NCBI GenBank assembly: GCA_036507075.1
Contig: DASXQR010000097.1
Coordinates: 29,391 to 93,390 of the forward strand
Origin: Acidobacteriota bacterium
Lineage (GTDB): Bacteria; Acidobacteriota; UBA6911; JACQSX01
Length of the DNA: 64,000 nucleotides
Direction: 5' to 3'
Part shown: positions 31,992-39,825 of the stretch, piece after piece
Layout of the letters: every line of letters begins with the position of its first letter
Numbering within the stretch: position 1 is the first letter of the stretch
Notes under the pieces: model-generated
Told to the model about the DNA's origin: nothing
Seen by the model: only the letters and a program-made list of their open reading frames with translations
Databases searched by the model: none
Program-made: the position numbers and the translations under genes

Positions 31992-32066
31992 GCGGTTCGG
32001 TTGCCGGTGAAAACTCGTGGCCTTGGTGCTTTCGCAGCGATTTCTTTCACGCTAAGATTCACGGGC

Positions 32067-33101
32067 ATGAACCGCCCTCCCCTTCGCACCACCGTGATTG
32101 GCAGTTATCCGTTTCCTGGATGGCTTGAGTTTGCCTGCCGGCATCTTGATAAATTCGGCACGGACGACGTGGAGGAAATGATCCAAGACGCGGTGGTCGC
32201 CGCCATCCACGATCAAATGAACGCCGGCCTGGATGTAATCACCGATGGCGAGCAAACCCGCCTCGATTTCAATCTGTCCTTCTACGGCTTTCTTGAAGGG
32301 ATTGAGCGAGAAACCGAGACGGCTCGACGTTTCGGCCCTCCCGCTCACGACCAGCGGGGTAAACATCCCGTGACCGGTGAAATCCGGGCGCCGCGAGGAT
32401 TGGGCGTGGTTGATGAATTCGCACGCCTGAAAAAGCTGGCGCCTAAAGGTCCCGCATTAAAGGCCAGCGTGCCGGGTCCCTATACGCTGAGCGGGCGCCT
32501 GATTCCGAATGCGGCATATCCGGATCGATACGCGCTGACAGAGGCGCTGCTGCCGATTGTGCGTGCAGAACTGGAAGCGCTGGTACGAGCCGGCTGCACC
32601 GAGATTACGGTAGACGAGCCATCGATGAGCTGCTATGCGCACCGGGAAGATCCCGAGCGCTTCGTCGAAATCTTTAACCGCACCGTTGCGCCCGTTTCAG
32701 GAAAGTGCCGGCTCTCGATTCATCTCTGTTTCGGGAACTACAAGGGCAGAGCGGTGGGCTTGCGTCGCTACGCGCCCATGTTCCCGGCATTTCTGGAAAT
32801 GAACGTGGATGAAATTCACGTCGAAATGGCGAGCCGTGAATTTGCCGAGATTGAGCTAATCGGCCCGATCAGCGACCGAAGAGACGTGGCGGTGGGAATC
32901 GTCGATGTAAAGAGCTATTACATCGAAACCGAAGAAGACATAGCCCATCGCGTGCGGCTCTGCCTGCGTCACGCGCCGCCGCAGCGTGTCTCCTTTGCGC
33001 CTGACTGCGGCCTCAGCCAGACAGCGCGGTGGGCTGCACGGATCAAACTGAAGAACATGGTAGCCGGCGTAAGGCGGGTGCGGGAGGAATTGGGGGGCTA
33101 G
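32067..33101 (+). CDS. Cobalamin-independent methionine synthase catalytic-domain-only protein (MetE-2 'core' type)
   Basis: IGSYP, TDGEQTR, PGPYTL, DEP, Zn ligands HLC, E and PDCGL; about 344 aa, half of MetE. Confidence 0.85.
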   Translation: MNRPPLRTTVIGSYPFPGWLEFACRHLDKFGTDDVEEMIQDAVVAAIHDQMNAGLDVITDGEQTRLDFNLSFYGFLEGIERETETARRFGPPAHDQRGKHPVTGEIRAPRGLGVVDEFARLKKLAPKGPALKASVPGPYTLSGRLIPNAAYPDRYALTEALLPIVRAELEALVRAGCTEITVDEPSMSCYAHREDPERFVEIFNRTVAPVSGKCRLSIHLCFGNYKGRAVGLRRYAPMFPAFLEMNVDEIHVEMASREFAEIELIGPISDRRDVAVGIVDVKSYYIETEEDIAHRVRLCLRHAPPQRVSFAPDCGLSQTARWAARIKLKNMVAGVRRVREELGG

Positions 33102-33300
33102 CGATGGAAGGATGGAGGGATGGAGGGATGGAGGGATGGAGAGATGGAGGGATGGAGAGATGGAGAGATGGAGGGATGGAGCGATGGAGAGATGGAGAGA
33201 TGGAGAGATGGAGGGATTGCCCTCCTGTTCCTCCATCTCTCAGTCCCTCCATCCCTCTTTCCCTCAGTCCCTCCATCCCTCAATCCCTCAATCCCTCAGT
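33102..33300. repeat. GATGGAG(A/G) octamer array with an inverted CCCTC(A/C)AT-type arm
   Basis: About 14 octamer units followed by an inverted arm, between convergent genes. Confidence 0.9.
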
Positions 33301-34143
33301 CCCTTCATCTACCGTCCAGCGCTCGCCGCAGCGCAGGAGCTTGTGCGGTTGCCGCAGCCGCTCGGCTTCGGCTACGAATTCGTCAGGCGACGCGGTGTTG
33401 AACTGAAACATCTCATAGTGGCACGGGATGACCAGCCCGGCCCCCATGCTTTTGGCGAGAGCGGCGGCTTCAGGTCCGGTCAGATTTCCAGCGACCCGGC
33501 GCGCCCGGGAGCGTCCATTGATCGGAAGCAGCGCCACAGTGACGTTATAACCGCGCAGTCTTTCCGCCAATCCGTCGTAATCAACGGTGTCGCCGCTGTG
33601 ATAGACCGTCCAGCACCCGAATCGAATGACATAGCCGAGAAACCGGCAGCGCCCCTGTTCGTCGCGTTGAATTTCCTCGTGGGCGGAAGCGACGCCAATG
33701 AAACGAAATGGTCCGACGTGCACCATCAGGCTGTCATCAATGCCCAGCAGCGCGTCCGCTGAAATTCCCAGGCGCTGCGCCGCAAAATCACGGTTTGCGC
33801 TGGGGACGATCATCTGCGCAGCCGGATTTTTCCGCAAGATTGGGACCACCGTTTCTGCGTCCAGATGGTCCGAATGATTGTGGCTGGAGCTGATCACTTC
33901 GATGAAGTCCAGCCGGTCGGGGGCTACGACACGCGCCGTCATTCTCACATGCGGCTTGTCGGTGCCTGCGTATTTCCGGGTAAGTGAGTCAGAGAGGTAA
34001 GGATCAATCAGAAGGTGGTGGCACTGCCACCGGATCAAGAATCCGCTCTGGCCCAGCCACCAGAGATGAAAAACATCCTGATTCTTCTGCGCTCCCTTCA
34101 CGTCGGCCAGAAACTGATCATCCTTCAAAACGGGTTGTATCAT
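33280..34143 (-). CDS. MBL-fold metallo-hydrolase (UlaG-like lactonase family)
   Basis: WLGQSGF, DPYLS, SHNHSDHLD, YHSGDT, IPCHY. Confidence 0.9.
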   Translation of the reverse strand: MIQPVLKDDQFLADVKGAQKNQDVFHLWWLGQSGFLIRWQCHHLLIDPYLSDSLTRKYAGTDKPHVRMTARVVAPDRLDFIEVISSSHNHSDHLDAETVVPILRKNPAAQMIVPSANRDFAAQRLGISADALLGIDDSLMVHVGPFRFIGVASAHEEIQRDEQGRCRFLGYVIRFGCWTVYHSGDTVDYDGLAERLRGYNVTVALLPINGRSRARRVAGNLTGPEAAALAKSMGAGLVIPCHYEMFQFNTASPDEFVAEAERLRQPHKLLRCGERWTVDEGTEGLRD

Positions 34144-34145
34144 GG

Positions 34146-34275
34146 GAGTTGACCACGGGATTGAGCACGAATTATCACGAATTTCACGAATTTCACGAAG
34201 CTATTTGGAATTTTACGAACTTAACTCAAAAGATTCGTGAAATTCGTGTCATTCGTGCAAATTCGTGATCAACTC
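34146..34275. repeat. CACGAATT-type inverted-arm element
   Basis: gagttgaccacg..cacgaattatcacgaatttcacgaa / ttcgtgaaattcgtg..cgtgatcaactc. Confidence 0.75.
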
Positions 34276-34635
34276 AAGGAACGGCTTTCCCCACGATTTC
34301 ATTCGCGCTTCCAGCTTTTCCGTGCAGTCGCAATCGCAGCACGCCCATGGCTCTGTTCCGTTCTCATCAAGACACTGGCGGCGATCGTGGGCATCCTGGA
34401 TCTTCACCAGATCGAAATACTCCTCCCAGTACGGGCGCTCCTCCTCGAGCGGCGTCCAGCAGAAGCACACTTCCAGCCAGTGCACAGAGCCGTCATCGAG
34501 GACCCGCGCCTGAAACATGTCGCGCACATATTCATCGCCGGCGATGGAACCTTTTCCGAGCGCTCCGGATTCAATCGCATCCCGCAGAGCCTTCTCTTTG
34601 CCGGGTTTCAGCCTCGCTCGAACAAGATAACGCAT
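34249..34635 (-). CDS. Cys-rich hypothetical protein (CxC...C...CCxCxC)
   Basis: 128-aa ORF with protein-like composition; EVCFC, QC and WACCDCDC. Confidence 0.75.
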   Translation of the reverse strand: MRYLVRARLKPGKEKALRDAIESGALGKGSIAGDEYVRDMFQARVLDDGSVHWLEVCFCWTPLEEERPYWEEYFDLVKIQDAHDRRQCLDENGTEPWACCDCDCTEKLEARMKSWGKPFLELITNLHE

Positions 34636-34919: not shown

Positions 34920-35978
34920 CTATTCGGCATGATTGCTTCCTGGCTCGTAGCGCCAGGCGGTTTTGTGACGGGCGCCTTCGGCAAATCGGGTGTCGACGTA
35001 TTCGTCAAATTCAATCTTGCGATTGAGCACGCCGGTTTCAATCATCAGATCGCGCACCAGATCAAAATCGGGCTTGCGCGGCGACAGCGGCGTGTACATC
35101 ACGCGATCCAGGGGGTTTGTCAATGCCCAGCGCAGCAGCGCAGGATTCTGGCGGTAATAGAACCTCCCCACAAAATCAGCGGCGTGTTCGCGGTAAGGAC
35201 GTCCCTTCTCCAGCCACAGTCCCGAGCGGGCGATCCCGTCGACAAGTACCTGCACGGCTTCCGGCCGGTGATCGATCATATCCTGGCGTACCACCAGGAC
35301 GCAGGACATGTAGTCGGGCCAATACTGCCGCGCGTGGAACAGCACTTTTCCAAAGCCCCCCATCTCGGCCTGTGACGGGAAGGGTTCGCCCATCGAGAAA
35401 GCATCAATGGCGCCGGCTGCCAACGCGCCCGCCACATCGGGCGGCGCCATTTCGACCATTTTGATGTCTCCCGGCTTCATTCCGAAATGTTTAAGCACCC
35501 GGAAAACGATCAGGCGCTCATCGGAAAAACGACTGGGAATGGCGATGGTGCGTCCCTTCAGGTCGGGGAATGTCTTGACCGGTCCGTCTTTTCGCACCAC
35601 CACGGCGCTTCCGTAACGATGTCCCAGATAGACAATGCGGATCGGCACACCCTGCGACCGCAGGGCGATGGCCATCGGCGCGACCATAAATGCCGCCTGC
35701 ATTTTATTGGAAATCAGCGCTTCCTTGATTTCAGGGAAGCCCTGAAACAATCTCGGGATAAACAAGTTTCCCGAGGCAGAATAGGCGGAGATATAGTCGG
35801 TTACCGGGCATGCCAGGTGTCAGGTTACCGGGATGTAAGCGACGTTCAGCTTTCGCCGGTCCTCAGGCAATCGGTCGTTCAACAGCACCGACCAGTTGAG
35901 ATTGAGATAAAAGTGCGTCGCTGTGATGATCACCAGCCAGGCAAAAATCCCCGCAACGATTCTTCTCGTGACGCTCAT
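34920..35978 (-). CDS. NitT/TauT (CmpA/NrtA-like) ABC substrate-binding protein with an in-frame TGA at codon 53; candidate selenoprotein
   Basis: AAGGAGG RBS, ATG 35978, TM anchor, LNVAYIPVT-TGA(35822-35820)-HLACPVTDY in frame with the 281-aa ORF (DLKGRTIAIP, GEPF); 352 codons. Confidence 0.8.
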
Positions 35979-36000
35979 AGGAAGTTCCTCCTTTTGGAAA

Positions 36001-36310
36001 GCAGTAGGCGGAAGGCAGGAGGCAGAAGGCAGGGCAAACTAGCCGAACCGCGCACGTCAGCAAGCGGACTCTCTCAGGTAACGGCGTTACTTGTAAACTC
36101 TCGGCCTCCTAGGCCAAACTTTCCGCATGCAAAGCCAGTAGTGTTACTTTGGAGTGTCCGCTTGCTGACGCGCGCGGTTCGGCTGGCACCGCCTTCTGCC
36201 TTCCGCCTTCCGCTTTCTGCCTCCTACCTCCTGCCTTCCGCTTTCTGCCTCCTGCCTCCTGCCTCCTGCCTCCTGCCTCCCACTTTCTGCCTCCTGCCTT
36301 CCGCCTTCCG
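36001..36310. repeat. AGGCAG(A/G) heptamer inverted arms enclosing a family-C inverted pair
   Basis: agccgaaccgcgcacgtcagcaagcggac / gtccgcttgctgacgcgcgcggttcggct inside ggcagaa / gcctcct arrays. Confidence 0.8.
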
Positions 36311-36316
36311 AGGCGC

Positions 36317-37090
36317 CTAGTCGGCCCGAAAGCCCCATCGCACGGCCTTAAACTTTTCGGTACGACGTATCAGAAGATCCAGGCACAACCCGATCAGGCC
36401 GATCAGCAGCATGCCTGAGACAACAAGGTCGTATCTCTTTCCGGCGTTGCGCGCATCAATGATCAGGTAACCCAGGCCTGAATCCACCGCAATCATCTCG
36501 GCAGCCACCACCACCAGCCATGCGATTCCAAGCGCAATACGCAATCCTGTCAGAATCCTGGGAAGCAAAGCCGGAAAGACGACCCGGCGAAACAGCGCCG
36601 CTGGCGAAAGCCCGAAATTACGTCCGGCGTGCAGGTACATCGGCGGAAGATTTCGAACTCCGTTCATGGTCGACACCACCACCGGAAAAAAGGCCGCAAG
36701 CAGGATCAAAAATGCAGGAGCAACGTCACTCACTCCAAACCAGATGATGGCAAGCGGCATCCATGCCAGCGGGCTGATGGGACGCATCATCTGAATTACC
36801 GGATTTACCGCGGCTGCCAGCGCCGGGTACCAGCCAAGAATAATGCCCATGGGCACACCCAGGCACACAGCCAAAGTGTAGCCGACGGCAACGCGCAGGA
36901 GAGAGTCGAGCATGTAGGACCATAACAACCCTTTGCGGGACAGCTCCAAGAGGCCGCGCAGCACCTCAGCGGGCGAAGGGAAGATTGTGGTGCCGCTCGT
37001 GCGAACCCCGTAATGCCAGACCAGAAGGAGCACTACAGTTGCCCCGACAGGCAGAGCAATCGGCTGCCAGCGTTTGTCAAAAAGCGTCAT
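36317..37090 (-). CDS. NitT/TauT ABC permease
   Basis: RPISPLAWMPL, VVVAAEMI..SGLG. Confidence 0.93.
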   Translation of the reverse strand: MTLFDKRWQPIALPVGATVVLLLVWHYGVRTSGTTIFPSPAEVLRGLLELSRKGLLWSYMLDSLLRVAVGYTLAVCLGVPMGIILGWYPALAAAVNPVIQMMRPISPLAWMPLAIIWFGVSDVAPAFLILLAAFFPVVVSTMNGVRNLPPMYLHAGRNFGLSPAALFRRVVFPALLPRILTGLRIALGIAWLVVVAAEMIAVDSGLGYLIIDARNAGKRYDLVVSGMLLIGLIGLCLDLLIRRTEKFKAVRWGFRAD

Positions 37091-37197: not shown

Positions 37198-37989
37198 TTA
37201 AACCTGGTGCGCCAGGCCGATCTCGGAAAAAAGGCTGTCGCGCAACTCCAGGTAGCGCATCGCACTGATATCTCTCGGATGCTCAATGTCGATGTCGACA
37301 ATGCGACGAATTCGAGCCGGCCGCGCGCTCATGACCACAACGCGATCGGCAAGCTGCACGGATTCTTCAATGTCATGCGTCACAAAGAGGATGGTCTTTT
37401 TTTCCGCTTGCCAGATGCGCAAAAGCTCACCGCGCATGATCAGCCGGGTGATGGAGTCGAGCGCTCCGAAAGGTTCATCAAGATAAAGGACGTCGGGATT
37501 GACGGCCAGAGCGCGGGCCACCTCCACGCGCTGCTTCATTCCCCCGGAAAGTTCCTGCGGATAGGCATGTTCGAAACCCTGCAGGCCCACCAGCTTCACG
37601 TAATGGGCGATCCTTTGGACCTTTTCTTCGCGTGAGACATTGAACAGGCCAAAACCGATGTTCCCTTCCACAGTCAGCCAGGGGAACACTCCCCGCTCCT
37701 GAAACACAAAAATGCGGCGTGAATCCGGCTCTCGTACAACTTCGCCGTCAATTGCGACTTCGCCTTCAGTCGGAGGGATGAAACCTCCGACGATATTCAA
37801 CAGCGTCGTTTTCCCGCAGCCGGACGGTCCGAGAAGGCAAACAAACTCGCCCTCCCTAATATCCAGGTTCAAGTTCTTCAGCACGTCCACTTGCTTCCCA
37901 TCGGAAGAAAAAGTCATGCTGAGGTTTCGAATTTCAACTTTTGTCCTGACAGAGGGCATGATCAGCGCCGTCGCAGTCTTTACTGTCAT
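37198..37989 (-). CDS. NitT/TauT ABC ATP-binding protein
   Basis: [29 protein letters not shown]. Confidence 0.95.
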   Translation of the reverse strand: MTVKTATALIMPSVRTKVEIRNLSMTFSSDGKQVDVLKNLNLDIREGEFVCLLGPSGCGKTTLLNIVGGFIPPTEGEVAIDGEVVREPDSRRIFVFQERGVFPWLTVEGNIGFGLFNVSREEKVQRIAHYVKLVGLQGFEHAYPQELSGGMKQRVEVARALAVNPDVLYLDEPFGALDSITRLIMRGELLRIWQAEKKTILFVTHDIEESVQLADRVVVMSARPARIRRIVDIDIEHPRDISAMRYLELRDSLFSEIGLAHQV

Positions 37990-38738
37990 GCGTTAGTGTA
38001 GCCCCATCGAAGTATTTTCAGAGTTTCCAGCTTTCTCATCATGACATCGAGCAGCAAACCGATGAAGCCTATCAGGACCATTCCGGCAACGACCAGGTCA
38101 TAGCGGTTACCGGCGTTCCTGGAATCAATGATCAGAAAGCCGAGCCCGGAATTCACGGCAATCATCTCGGCGGCTACCACAACCAGCCACGCAATGCCGA
38201 GGGTGATGCGCAGGGCGACGATCAACTGCGGCATGACGGCGGGATAAATCACCTCTCGAATCAGCCTTGCCGGGGATAACCCGAAGTTCCGGCCGATATT
38301 AAGATGGATCGCTTCGATGCTGCGAACTGCATTCATGGCAGCCACGGTCAGCGGCAAGAACGAGGCGAGAAAAATCAGGAATATAGCGGCCACATCTCCT
38401 ACACCGAACCAGAGAATTGAAATCGGGGTCCAGGCCAGCGGTGAAATGGGCCGGAGCACCTGGATCAAGGGATTAAAGGTCCATTCGCCGCGCCGAAACC
38501 AGCCCAGAATAAGACCGAATGGAATCGCTGTGATTACGGCCAGCAGATAACCCCACGTCACGCGAAACAAGGAAGCTACCACATACTTGAAAAGCAGACC
38601 TCTCTGGACCAAATCAACCAGGCCTTTGACGACCTGCCAGGGATCAGGAATCAGCGTCGATTTTTCCCACTGCACGGCGACTTGCCAACAGATCACCAAA
38701 AGCGCCGCCCCCGAAAAAGGTATCAGACGTTTCACCAT
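37986..38738 (-). CDS. NitT/TauT ABC permease
   Basis: RPISPLAWTPI, VVVAAEMI; paralog of 36317. Confidence 0.93.
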   Translation of the reverse strand: MVKRLIPFSGAALLVICWQVAVQWEKSTLIPDPWQVVKGLVDLVQRGLLFKYVVASLFRVTWGYLLAVITAIPFGLILGWFRRGEWTFNPLIQVLRPISPLAWTPISILWFGVGDVAAIFLIFLASFLPLTVAAMNAVRSIEAIHLNIGRNFGLSPARLIREVIYPAVMPQLIVALRITLGIAWLVVVAAEMIAVNSGLGFLIIDSRNAGNRYDLVVAGMVLIGFIGLLLDVMMRKLETLKILRWGYTNA

Positions 38739-39087: not shown

Positions 39088-39183
39088 GCGGAAGGCAGAA
39101 GGCAGGAGGCAGAAGGCAGGAGGCAGGAGGCAGGAGGCCTGCCTCCTGCCTCCTGCTTTCTGCCTTCCGCCTTCCGCCTTTCC
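39088..39183. repeat. AGGCAG(A/G) heptamer perfect-style palindrome between convergent genes
   Basis: ggaaggcagaaggcaggaggc... / ...gcctcctgctttctgccttcc. Confidence 0.85.
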
Positions 39184-39825
39184 CTAAAGCCGGCCTGTAA
39201 GACTAGCCACCAGATTCAGCAGCTTGTCAGGATCTACCGGCTTGGCAGCATGGGCCTGAAAGCCGGCTGATTGAGCCAGCACGCGGTCCTGCGGACGCGA
39301 GAACGCGGTCACGGCCACTGCGGGAACAAGTCCGCCTGCGGCCGGGGCCAGCGATCGGACTTTGCGTACCAGCGAGTAACCGTCCTCGCCCGGCATGGCA
39401 ATATCAACCAGCAACAAATCCGGTTTGTGCTGCGCAAAAAGTTTCAAAGCTTCTGAAGCTGAGGCCGCGATCTTCACGTCAGCTCCTTGATCACGCAGTA
39501 TGAAGCCGAGCAACTCCCTGCAGTCAAGTTCATCATCCACTACAACAATCCGAACACCATTGAGCCTCGGCCGAACGCGCCGTTCCTCTTCGCGGTCAGC
39601 AAACCCGCAGCGTTCCAGATCTGATTCTGCAACACTCATGTATCTCCCACTACTTAAAAGAACCAGGTAAGTCTTGTGGGTGCCGCCCGATTCGAAATGA
39701 TCAATCCAGCCTTCTTTCACCGTGCCTTGCTTCCCCCTGGAACCGGCGGTTTTCACCCGCTCACCCAGCTTAAATCTAAATCCCACCTCTGCAGGATTTT
39801 CCGACTCAGATAACCGTGCCACCAC
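39184..39825 (-). CDS. Response regulator receiver with a small N-terminal beta-barrel-like domain
   Basis: FKLGERVK..G..GTV N-terminus, ERRVRPR linker, VVVDDE, DIAMPGEDG, VTAF, KP. Confidence 0.8.
   Translation of the reverse strand: MVARLSESENPAEVGFRFKLGERVKTAGSRGKQGTVKEGWIDHFESGGTHKTYLVLLSSGRYMSVAESDLERCGFADREEERRVRPRLNGVRIVVVDDELDCRELLGFILRDQGADVKIAASASEALKLFAQHKPDLLLVDIAMPGEDGYSLVRKVRSLAPAAGGLVPAVAVTAFSRPQDRVLAQSAGFQAHAAKPVDPDKLLNLVASLTGRL

Follow-up and report, generated by a model that had tools for sequence, protein, structure and literature searches.

A probable selenocysteine-containing substrate-binding protein of Acidobacteriota and a predicted long-range RNA fold that accompanies its UGA codon

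Does a TGA codon inside the gene of an ATP-binding cassette (ABC) substrate-binding protein (SBP) mark the end of a damaged gene, or is it read as selenocysteine (Sec), and if so, which feature of the messenger RNA (mRNA) could direct the insertion? This question is raised by a stretch of 64,000 nucleotides (nt) from an Acidobacteriota bacterium (assembly GCA_036507075.1, contig DASXQR010000097.1, positions 29,391 to 93,390), which is called the window in the following and whose own coordinates are used throughout. The explanation which we prefer, with a probability of roughly 0.88, is that the gene encodes a Sec-containing, anchored SBP of a four-gene importer. Furthermore, the TGA forms of this gene share what looks like a new kind of Sec insertion signal, a long-range fold of the mRNA predicted from the comparison of related genes.

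Codon 53 and its reading frame

The frame in question runs on the minus strand from an ATG (35978-35976) to a TAG (34920-34922) and encodes 352 residues with a single internal TGA. In the list of open reading frames (ORFs) it is divided into an ORF of 52 amino acids (aa) starting with the ATG (35820-35978) and one of 281 aa starting with a TTG (34920-35765), and in the public protein collection the product of the window is present only as the 281-aa fragment (P0082). The first-pass annotation of this DNA had noticed that the ORF track splits the gene at the TTG, had followed the same frame upstream to the ATG across one TGA at codon 53, and had described an AAGGAGG ribosome-binding site and a hydrophobic N-terminal anchor in this extension. 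On direct reading the frame, the TGA and the ribosome-binding site (8 nt before the ATG) were all found as described, and in a model predicted with AlphaFold 2 (AF2) residues 3-26 form a helix. The annotation was also right in treating TGA as an ordinary stop in the window: three of the nine nearby genes which were checked end with it, and therefore the genome is not recoded. Among the TGA forms of the gene (Sec forms, see below) the ratio of nonsynonymous to synonymous substitution (dN/dS) is 0.22 for codons -45 to -1 and 0.15 for codons -30 to -1, counted from the TGA, compared to 0.13 downstream of it. Because dN/dS is low upstream of the TGA, the N-terminal part appears to be translated in the same frame, and by this measure the codons 5' of the TGA are under purifying selection.

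Codon 53 was compared in loci from 61 related genomes, from a 401-genome sample of the phylum and from 80 named loci of the genome collection. In total 97 loci were examined; three lack the motif and 94 were tabulated. Codon 53 is TGA in 34 of these orthologous loci, TGC in 49 and TGT in 11, and no other codon occurs. With the same codon being TGA in 34 loci and TGC or TGT in the other 60, the recurrence of TGA is far beyond chance. After removal of four duplicates, 31 Sec forms and 59 forms with a Cys codon (Cys forms) were retained; one of the Cys forms (L038) comes from an unpublished genome (G083), and no claim is based on it alone. A six-frame search of the 61 related genomes found orthologs in four other species with 81-85% identity, each interrupted by one TGA at the same codon. 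In the 401-genome sample an ortholog is present in 14 genomes, with the TGA in six and intact in eight. Of the best 120 homologs from the database 119 are full length, and column 53 is Cys in all 119 of them; the remaining one is the window's own fragment.

The TGA form is thus known from the genomes of nine species (eight besides that of the window), which span five family-level groups, and a pattern scan added at least 120 metagenome stretches. The SBP family belongs to the Acidobacteriota, and the matches of the Sec form are largely metagenome-assembled genomes labelled as Thermoanaerobaculia and metagenome contigs. The second Cys of the U-x3-C motif, Cys57, is encoded by TGC in all 31 genome-derived Sec forms, compared to 41 TGC and 18 TGT in the Cys forms. 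One metagenome stretch (L172) matches the TGA pattern and then diverges, with the lowest pairwise identity in the set (0.32), or reaches a stop about 30 codons further on; it was excluded from the RNA counts given below. Judged by these comparisons, codon 53 has been conserved as a sense codon, at which UGA alternates with Cys codons and with no others. The first-pass annotation had suggested tabulating this codon in homologs, and the mix of TGA and TGY codons which it expected of a selenoprotein is what was found; nor is the TGA unique to this assembly.

The same annotation had proposed to look for the Sec machinery, and selA, selB, selD and tRNA-Sec are all present in the window's genome, which is 95.7% complete. 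The profile scores are 379.7 bits for selB, 529.4 for selA and 346.8 for selD, all above the curated cut-offs, and the tRNA-Sec scores 71.7 bits, above threshold, and is called tRNA-SeC with the anticodon UCA by ARAGORN. A second candidate for tRNA-Sec (G000:C43:8059-8148, L017) exceeds the Rfam threshold with 52.3 bits and was rejected, being a tRNA-Ser with the anticodon UGA according to ARAGORN. selA was found in nine of nine TGA-form genomes and in five of seven tested Cys-form genomes; the two without it are 99% complete. The machinery is a necessary condition for Sec and it is there, but it discriminates only weakly. The genome also carries further selenoprotein genes. Its selD (G000:C59:4836-5753, L013) has an in-frame TGA of its own (context ..SCAG-U-AAKLPP) directly followed by a tight hairpin of 6 bp, and a formate dehydrogenase gene of the fdnG type (G000:C157:4914-5684, L124) is likewise interrupted by an in-frame TGA (context ..QARV-U-HGPTV), after which a hairpin follows at a distance of about 15 nt.

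Taken together we consider it very probable that the UGA at codon 53 encodes Sec, and we infer that it is decoded by SelB and tRNA-Sec. The proposal of a Sec-containing ABC substrate-binding protein, already made in the first-pass annotation, is backed by the TGA/TGY mix, by the Cys of the database homologs and by the Sec machinery. On this comparative basis the SBP is a genuine and widespread Sec/Cys family and a bacterial selenoprotein.

A predicted long-range RNA fold in the Sec forms

For the analysis at the RNA level 134 non-redundant Sec sequences were used, 104 of which come from pattern-retrieved metagenomes; 128 of them served for the calculation of pair probabilities, and 59 Cys forms were used for comparison. 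Positions are counted from the UGA. The normalised synonymous-site entropy of the Sec forms has a gene mean of 0.60 and falls to 0.27 at codons +4 to +13 and to 0.22-0.33 at codons +33 to +57. In the Cys forms it stays near 0.77 throughout and is 0.79 at the first trough of the Sec forms. The two blocks of low entropy are complementary to each other: the consensus fold of nt +1 to +189 has -36.4 kcal/mol for 31 Sec forms compared to -0.65 kcal/mol for the 59 Cys forms. The window's own 190 nt fold with -77.6 kcal/mol, in comparison to -58.6 ± 4.8 kcal/mol for shuffled sequences (z = -3.98), and none of 200 shuffles was as good.

The fold consists of three helices (H1, H2 and H3), which form an interrupted long-range stem of 18 bp enclosing about 84 nt, and of a hairpin (H4) which starts 3 nt past the 3' end of H1. 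In the partition function of the 128 Sec forms the mean pair probabilities are 0.54 and 0.79 for the two parts of H1, 0.77 for H2, 0.66 for H3 and 0.84 for H4; in the 59 Cys forms they are 0.00 for H1 to H3 and 0.10 for H4. Individual positions give the same picture, as 17-147 can pair in 96% of the 134 Sec forms compared to 44% of the Cys forms, 28-138 in 98% compared to 12%, and 162-169 in 100% compared to 36%. These paired positions are synonymous and vary freely in the Cys forms. Position 144, opposite to U20, is a purine in the Sec forms with one exception (G in 94, A in 39). The columns of the 3' strand are free of any constraint by the search pattern, yet they are still complementary. 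Over all pairs 95.1% of the cells are paired, compared to 34-49% when the partners are slid against each other. The H4 loop is CGGGCU in 47, CGUGCU in 46 and CGGUCG in 24 of the 134 sequences, and a motif with this type of loop is unique to the SBP locus in the genome. An unbiased scan for Sec-specific helices of at least three stacked pairs was too noisy, the Sec forms varying little, and recovered H4; a competing pairing which it proposed (122-127 with 159-164) was rejected with a thermodynamic probability of only 0.01.

How far the fold follows the codon and how far the lineage can be seen from a quick maximum-likelihood tree. All 31 Sec forms are located in one half of the tree which comprises 39 rows and also includes eight Cys forms, and four changes between Sec and Cys are needed. 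Therefore, shared ancestry explains part of the conservation, and the tree would allow a single origin of the Sec forms. The eight Cys forms nested among the Sec forms, however, have a probability of 0.00 for H1 to H3 in every case, while of 17 Sec forms checked in the same half 16 have H4 and 16 have at least two of H1 to H3 at a probability of at least 0.5. As the H1-H3 pairing is missing from these nested Cys forms, the fold goes with the codon and not with the lineage alone.

Codons +12 and +43, which lie on the two strands of the fold, encode Ala/Ala in 94 of the 134 Sec forms, Arg/Gly in 19 and mixed Ala/Gly or Arg/Ala in 13, with other codons at +12 in the remaining eight. With its register shifted, H3 can also form in the Arg/Gly class (a mean of 4.4 of 6 pairs, compared to 2.0 in the Ala/Ala class); this is suggestive and not independent of relatedness. 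Sec and Cys forms also differ in some residues encoded on the helices, namely at +12 (Ala in Sec, Lys in Cys forms), at +45 (Met in Sec, Ile in Cys forms) and at +54/+55 (Arg-Ala/Ser in Sec, Lys/Val/Ala in Cys forms). Codons +12, +43, +45 and +54/+55 correspond to about 35786, 35693, 35687 and 35660 of the window. Judged by the alignments, the sequence of the protein seems to have been shaped in part by the RNA structure.

In the canonical case a bacterial Sec insertion sequence (SECIS) is a single local hairpin whose loop lies about 16-37 nt from the UGA (the bSECISearch rule), and the minimal SECIS of E. coli requires a spacing of 11 nt from the UGA. The structure described here resembles the canonical SECIS of the fdhF type in being an mRNA structure in the coding region downstream of the UGA which is present only together with the UGA, and its first helix begins 10 nt after the UGA, near the E. 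coli spacing. It differs in that the conserved hairpin is found at +156-175, joined via the long-range stem, and no conserved local hairpin accompanies it. A ribosome paused with the UGA in its A site would meet the long-range stem (nt +14-40 paired with +125-152) at its mRNA entry, and the stem would place H4 at the position usually taken by the hairpin of a canonical SECIS. We think it rather more likely than not that the mRNA structure confined to the UGA forms is required for Sec insertion. With appreciably less confidence, H4 could be the element bound by SelB, positioned by the long-range stem. The full combination, a split long-range SECIS acting at a distance and a Sec which serves as ligand of a metal cofactor in a periplasmic SBP of abundant soil bacteria, is a tentative proposal on which we would not yet bet.

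Several observations weigh against this interpretation. The Sec reading rests on comparison, and a canonical SECIS was looked for after the UGA and not found: the minimum free energy of nt +1 to +45 is -4.6 kcal/mol in Sec compared to -5.4 kcal/mol in Cys forms, and the consensus fold of the first 45, 60 or 80 nt of the Sec forms reaches only -0.37 kcal/mol. The hairpin adjacent to the UGA was therefore rejected as SECIS, in line with the first-pass annotation, which had found only weak hairpins there and had not called one. Two other local candidates, one formed across the UGA by the duplicated PVT codons and the other a stable hairpin of the window at +48-71, are also present in Cys forms or not conserved. 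Searches against Rfam with the region and with the complete operon detected neither a SECIS nor a riboswitch; the matches were due to chance or were of a generic, miRNA-like long-hairpin type. To our knowledge there is no precedent for a bacterial SECIS with its hairpin about 150 nt from the UGA, and a literature search in titles and abstracts did not find a long-range bacterial SECIS.

On the same side of the balance, changes on both sides of a pair occur in only two pairs and nine cells, and 11 of 25 pairs are invariant. Because true covariation is sparse, the case for the RNA rests on the Sec-specific conservation, and this could be inflated by relatedness. The pattern by which 104 of the 134 sequences were retrieved fixed most of nt -6 to +32, which introduces an ascertainment bias into the 5' strands of H1 and H2 in this subset; the 31 protein-retrieved Sec forms show the same invariance of these strands. 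The loops of H4 are unlike those of the post-UGA hairpins of selD and fdnG in the same genome, a G-U step is missing from the H4 loop in 58 of 134 sequences, and one Sec form (L119) has neither H2 nor H3.

These points also feed the most serious competing explanation, in which the protein is a real selenoprotein and the long-range fold is a lineage-specific mRNA element with a role in stability, pausing or regulation, Sec being inserted via a weak and poorly conserved local hairpin or by a SelB with relaxed requirements. We regard it as rather unlikely. It would agree with the sparse covariation, with the concentration of the Sec forms in one half of the tree and with the weak local hairpins beside the UGA in individual sequences. 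It can also appeal to the available part of the BSepDB paper, according to which only 87.4% of the catalogued bacterial selenoprotein genes have a canonical SECIS, so that missing SECIS calls are common. On the other hand, the synonymous suppression is confined to two complementary blocks and not gene-wide, the nested Cys forms have lost the pairing of H1 to H3, and the local hairpins are no better in Sec than in Cys forms.

The remaining explanations question Sec itself. A UGA read through independently of the Sec machinery, by a near-cognate Trp or Cys tRNA or by another kind of programmed readthrough, would give a full-length protein free of selenium. The missing canonical SECIS would suit this idea, but the alternation with Cys codons only is the signature of Sec, every TGA-form genome has selA, the genome encodes further selenoproteins of the selD and fdnG type, and an RNA structure specific to the UGA is conserved, which together make this readthrough very improbable. 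Still less credit can be given to two separate products, a membrane peptide of 52 residues ending at the TGA and a 281-aa SBP starting at the internal TTG. This is how the gene callers have annotated the locus (ORF 34920-35765 and P0082), but in the shorter SBP the first strand and the first helix of a confidently predicted fold would be missing, as would the conserved C/U-H motif and any export signal. In addition, residues 54-71 between TGA and TTG are conserved in frame, and every Cys-form ortholog is one continuous protein of about 352 aa. A nonsense mutation, pseudogene or sequencing error, which has nothing in its favour except the bare presence of a stop codon, is refuted by the recurrence of the identical TGA in the genomes of eight further species and in at least 120 stretches of metagenome sequence, by the TGA/TGY mix, by dN/dS values that indicate purifying selection on either side of the TGA, and by the intact state of the remaining operon genes.

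The protein, its candidate metal site and its operon

The protein matches the Pfam family NMT1_2 with 93.4 bits (cut-off 24.7). Named equivalogs of NCBIfam all stay below their curated cut-offs (SsuA_fam 117.8 compared to 163.5, the TauA models 59-62 compared to 304-490). The AF2 model, calculated from an alignment of 49 rows, has a mean predicted local distance difference test (pLDDT) of 94.5 and a predicted template modelling score (pTM) of 0.89. Besides the N-terminal helix it contains a strand at residues 45-48, a short turn with Sec53 and His54, and a helix (56-64) which starts at Cys57. It has the type II periplasmic-binding-protein fold, and its Foldseek matches include 3un6, TauA, SsuA, NrtA and CmpA. 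3un6 is the closest structure both in sequence (E 2.8e-24, 22% identity) and in fold (E 1.2e-26, TM score 0.90 normalised to the target), and according to its title it was crystallised with zinc.

The HMMER alignment places a His, a second His and a Cys of 3un6 opposite Sec53, His120 and Cys226, respectively; the role of these three residues as zinc ligands is assumed. Among 34 remote homologs with 25-44% identity column 53 is occupied by Asp in 16, Cys in 8, His in 8 and Ser in 2, and column 54 is His in 24. Cys57 is present in 14 of 14 close homologs and in 5 of the 34 remote ones (for His120 and Cys226 see the table). Some remote homologs of the binding domain (26-36% identity) are parts of longer proteins, namely P0179 (1416 aa), P0182 (1068 aa), P0254 (848 aa), P0197 (769 aa) and P0150 (642 aa). 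Sec53, on the loop that leads from strand 1 into helix 1, would together with His120, Cys226 and perhaps His54 or Cys57 ligate a Zn-type ion as in 3UN6. This ion might be a cofactor which holds the transported solute or might be the cargo itself, and a selenolate in place of a thiolate would tune the metal site. We give somewhat better than even odds to Sec53 being the residue at the variable position among the ligands of a conserved Zn-type site. The first-pass annotation had interpreted UxxxC as a selenol/thiol ligand site for a soft metal, an organometal or a sulfur or selenium compound; a metal site agrees with the relation to 3UN6 in its zinc-bound state and with the column of Cys, Asp and His, while the organometal and the sulfur or selenium compound found no support.

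Here, too, some points speak against the proposal. The placement of residues 53, 57, 120 and 226 as one site rests on alignment, both permeases of the operon were found to lack conserved Cys and His residues, and neither a conserved neighbour nor a riboswitch points to the substrate. The permeases without Cys or His fit a metal cofactor of the SBP better than a soft metal which is passed along thiols, and this comparison of sequences is not decisive.

The SBP gene is the last one of a unit on the minus strand in the order permease, ATPase, permease and SBP, and this four-gene unit is kept around the orthologs in 25-30 of 30 Sec-form and 55-59 of 59 Cys-form loci. The positions of all features are given in the following table.

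Table. Positions of the described features in the window
Feature	Position	Strand	Remarks
Putative selenoprotein gene, 352 aa, NitT/TauT-type (Pfam NMT1_2) ABC SBP	34920..35978	-	ATG to TAG, one UGA probably read through
UGA codon 53, probably read as Sec	35820..35822	-	context YIPVT-U-HLAC-PVTDY
Ribosome-binding site AAGGAGG	35987..35993	-	8 nt 5' of the ATG, read from the sequence
N-terminal hydrophobic helix, residues 3-26, probably a signal anchor	35901..35972	-	AF2 helix; conserved in frame
H1 (nt +14-20), H2 (+25-29) and H3 (+35-40), 5' strands	35783..35809	-	first synonymous trough, Sec forms only
H3 (+125-130), H2 (+137-141) and H1 (+144-147, +150-152), 3' strands	35671..35698	-	second synonymous trough
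Hairpin H4 (nt +156-175; 156-162 with 169-175)	35648..35667	-	GC-rich stem of 7 bp, loop of 6 nt
Cys57 codon, second Cys of U-x3-C	35808..35810	-	UGC invariant in Sec forms
His120 codon, candidate metal ligand	35619..35621	-	His in 14/14 close and 30/34 remote homologs
Cys226 codon, candidate metal ligand	35301..35303	-	Cys in 14/14 close and 26/34 remote homologs
ABC permease 2 (BPD_transp_1)	36317..37090	-	beside the SBP in 29/30 Sec and 58/59 Cys loci
ABC ATPase	37198..37989	-	25/30 Sec and 55/59 Cys loci
ABC permease 1 (BPD_transp_1)	37986..38738	-	29/30 Sec and 58/59 Cys loci

None of the window's other neighbours is kept with the operon, and eight other loci which were compared have no flanking gene in common. 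The genes which do not accompany the operon in other genomes are a short MetE-like methyltransferase gene (Meth_synt_2, 32001-33101, plus strand), a hydrolase of the metallo-beta-lactamase fold (33280-34143, minus strand), an ORF of 128 aa without assigned family (34249-34635, minus strand) and a response regulator. The spacer of 338 nt between permease 2 and the SBP (35979-36316, minus strand) folds into a huge hairpin (-193.1 kcal/mol, z = -12.8, none of 100 shuffles as good), in which about 17 tandem heptads of the GGAGGCA type (36191-36308) pair with about five complementary heptads (35996-36033) located before the ribosome-binding site of the SBP gene; an inner inverted repeat is also present. 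Copies of the heptad motif are scattered over the genome, a version of 20 nt having 36 matches on 14 contigs, and from its sequence the spacer looks like an element of the repetitive extragenic palindromic (REP) or miniature inverted-repeat transposable element (MITE) kind, rich in Shine-Dalgarno-like AGGAGG units. At about 39088-39184 the gap that separates the first gene of the ABC operon from the gene of the response regulator holds a near-perfect palindromic hairpin. Many models of miRNA precursors match it on either strand, none of them reaching the threshold, and it may represent a further structured repeat or a terminator acting in both directions.

Relation to known systems

Sec-containing ABC substrate-binding proteins as such are known. 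In the available text of the Haft & Gwadz preprint and in the family table of the 2026 review PMC13188914 these are the SAO system, with SaoB (carrying a CU motif) and SaoX, and BtuF. The precedent of Sec-containing ABC subunits in the SAO locus, which the first-pass annotation had given, is borne out by that preprint. According to the same source SAO is restricted to anaerobes and comprises a nine-gene neighbourhood with a Sec-containing permease. The protein of the window resembles SaoX and SaoB, as described there, in being an ABC SBP with Sec in place of Cys at a presumed metal-binding cleft, and SaoX is of the same broad class of folds: the structures 4NMY and 2X26, with which it is compared in the preprint, are both among the Foldseek matches of our model. 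Membership in SAO was rejected by the profile scores (SaoX 59.6 compared to a cut-off of 300, SaoP 175.4 and 152.1 compared to 295, SaoA 257.3 compared to 360). The motifs also differ, being CU, CC or UxP in SAO as far as the preprint text goes and U-x3-C here. In contrast to SAO with its Sec permease and partner genes, the importer described here is a stand-alone four-gene operon of Acidobacteriota whose permeases have no conserved Cys or Sec, and its neighbours in the window and at eight other loci are unrelated to SAO.

The SBPs of the 3UN6 type (zinc-bound in S. aureus, associated with CO dehydrogenase (CODH) of clade B) are the best match in sequence and fold and share the candidate ligand columns. 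In the available parts of PMC6344411 and PMC13592312 such SBPs encoded next to clade B CODHs are discussed, and PMC13592312 (2026) presents an AlphaFold 3 model of a related CODH-associated SBP in which a metal is held by two Cys and one or two His. They are lipoproteins of Bacillota, often encoded adjacent to a CODH, and no Sec form of them is on record. The protein of the window differs by its probable signal anchor, by two different permeases and by the absence of a CODH neighbour. SsuA, TauA, NrtA and CmpA belong to the same Pfam clan and share the fold and the permease and ATPase families of the operon, with scores below the cut-offs as given above. We know of no Cys/Sec-His site after strand 1 in these proteins. 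Term searches in the available text of PMC13188914 and the Haft & Gwadz preprint, in BSepDB (text and one supplement) and in deep-Sep did not find the family; they did not include Haft & Tolstoy 2025 (mSystems), which may bear on the novelty of the family.

For the annotation of genomes the consequence is that gene callers truncate the protein to a 281-aa fragment without the anchor and the key motif, and therefore annotations of this SBP family are systematically wrong both in genomes of Acidobacteriota and in metagenomes from soil. For the SBPs of the 3UN6 type residue 53 would be marked as a functional centre, which would bear on the substrate question raised in work on clade B CODHs. Should the long-range RNA indeed be the insertion signal, it would break the rule that the bacterial SECIS is a local hairpin, some of the bacterial selenoprotein genes regarded as "SECIS-less" could be explained, and the prediction of Sec genes would have to change. 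For the biology of the phylum, Sec-containing ABC substrate-binding proteins would extend past the anaerobe-restricted SAO system to a stand-alone importer of Acidobacteriota.

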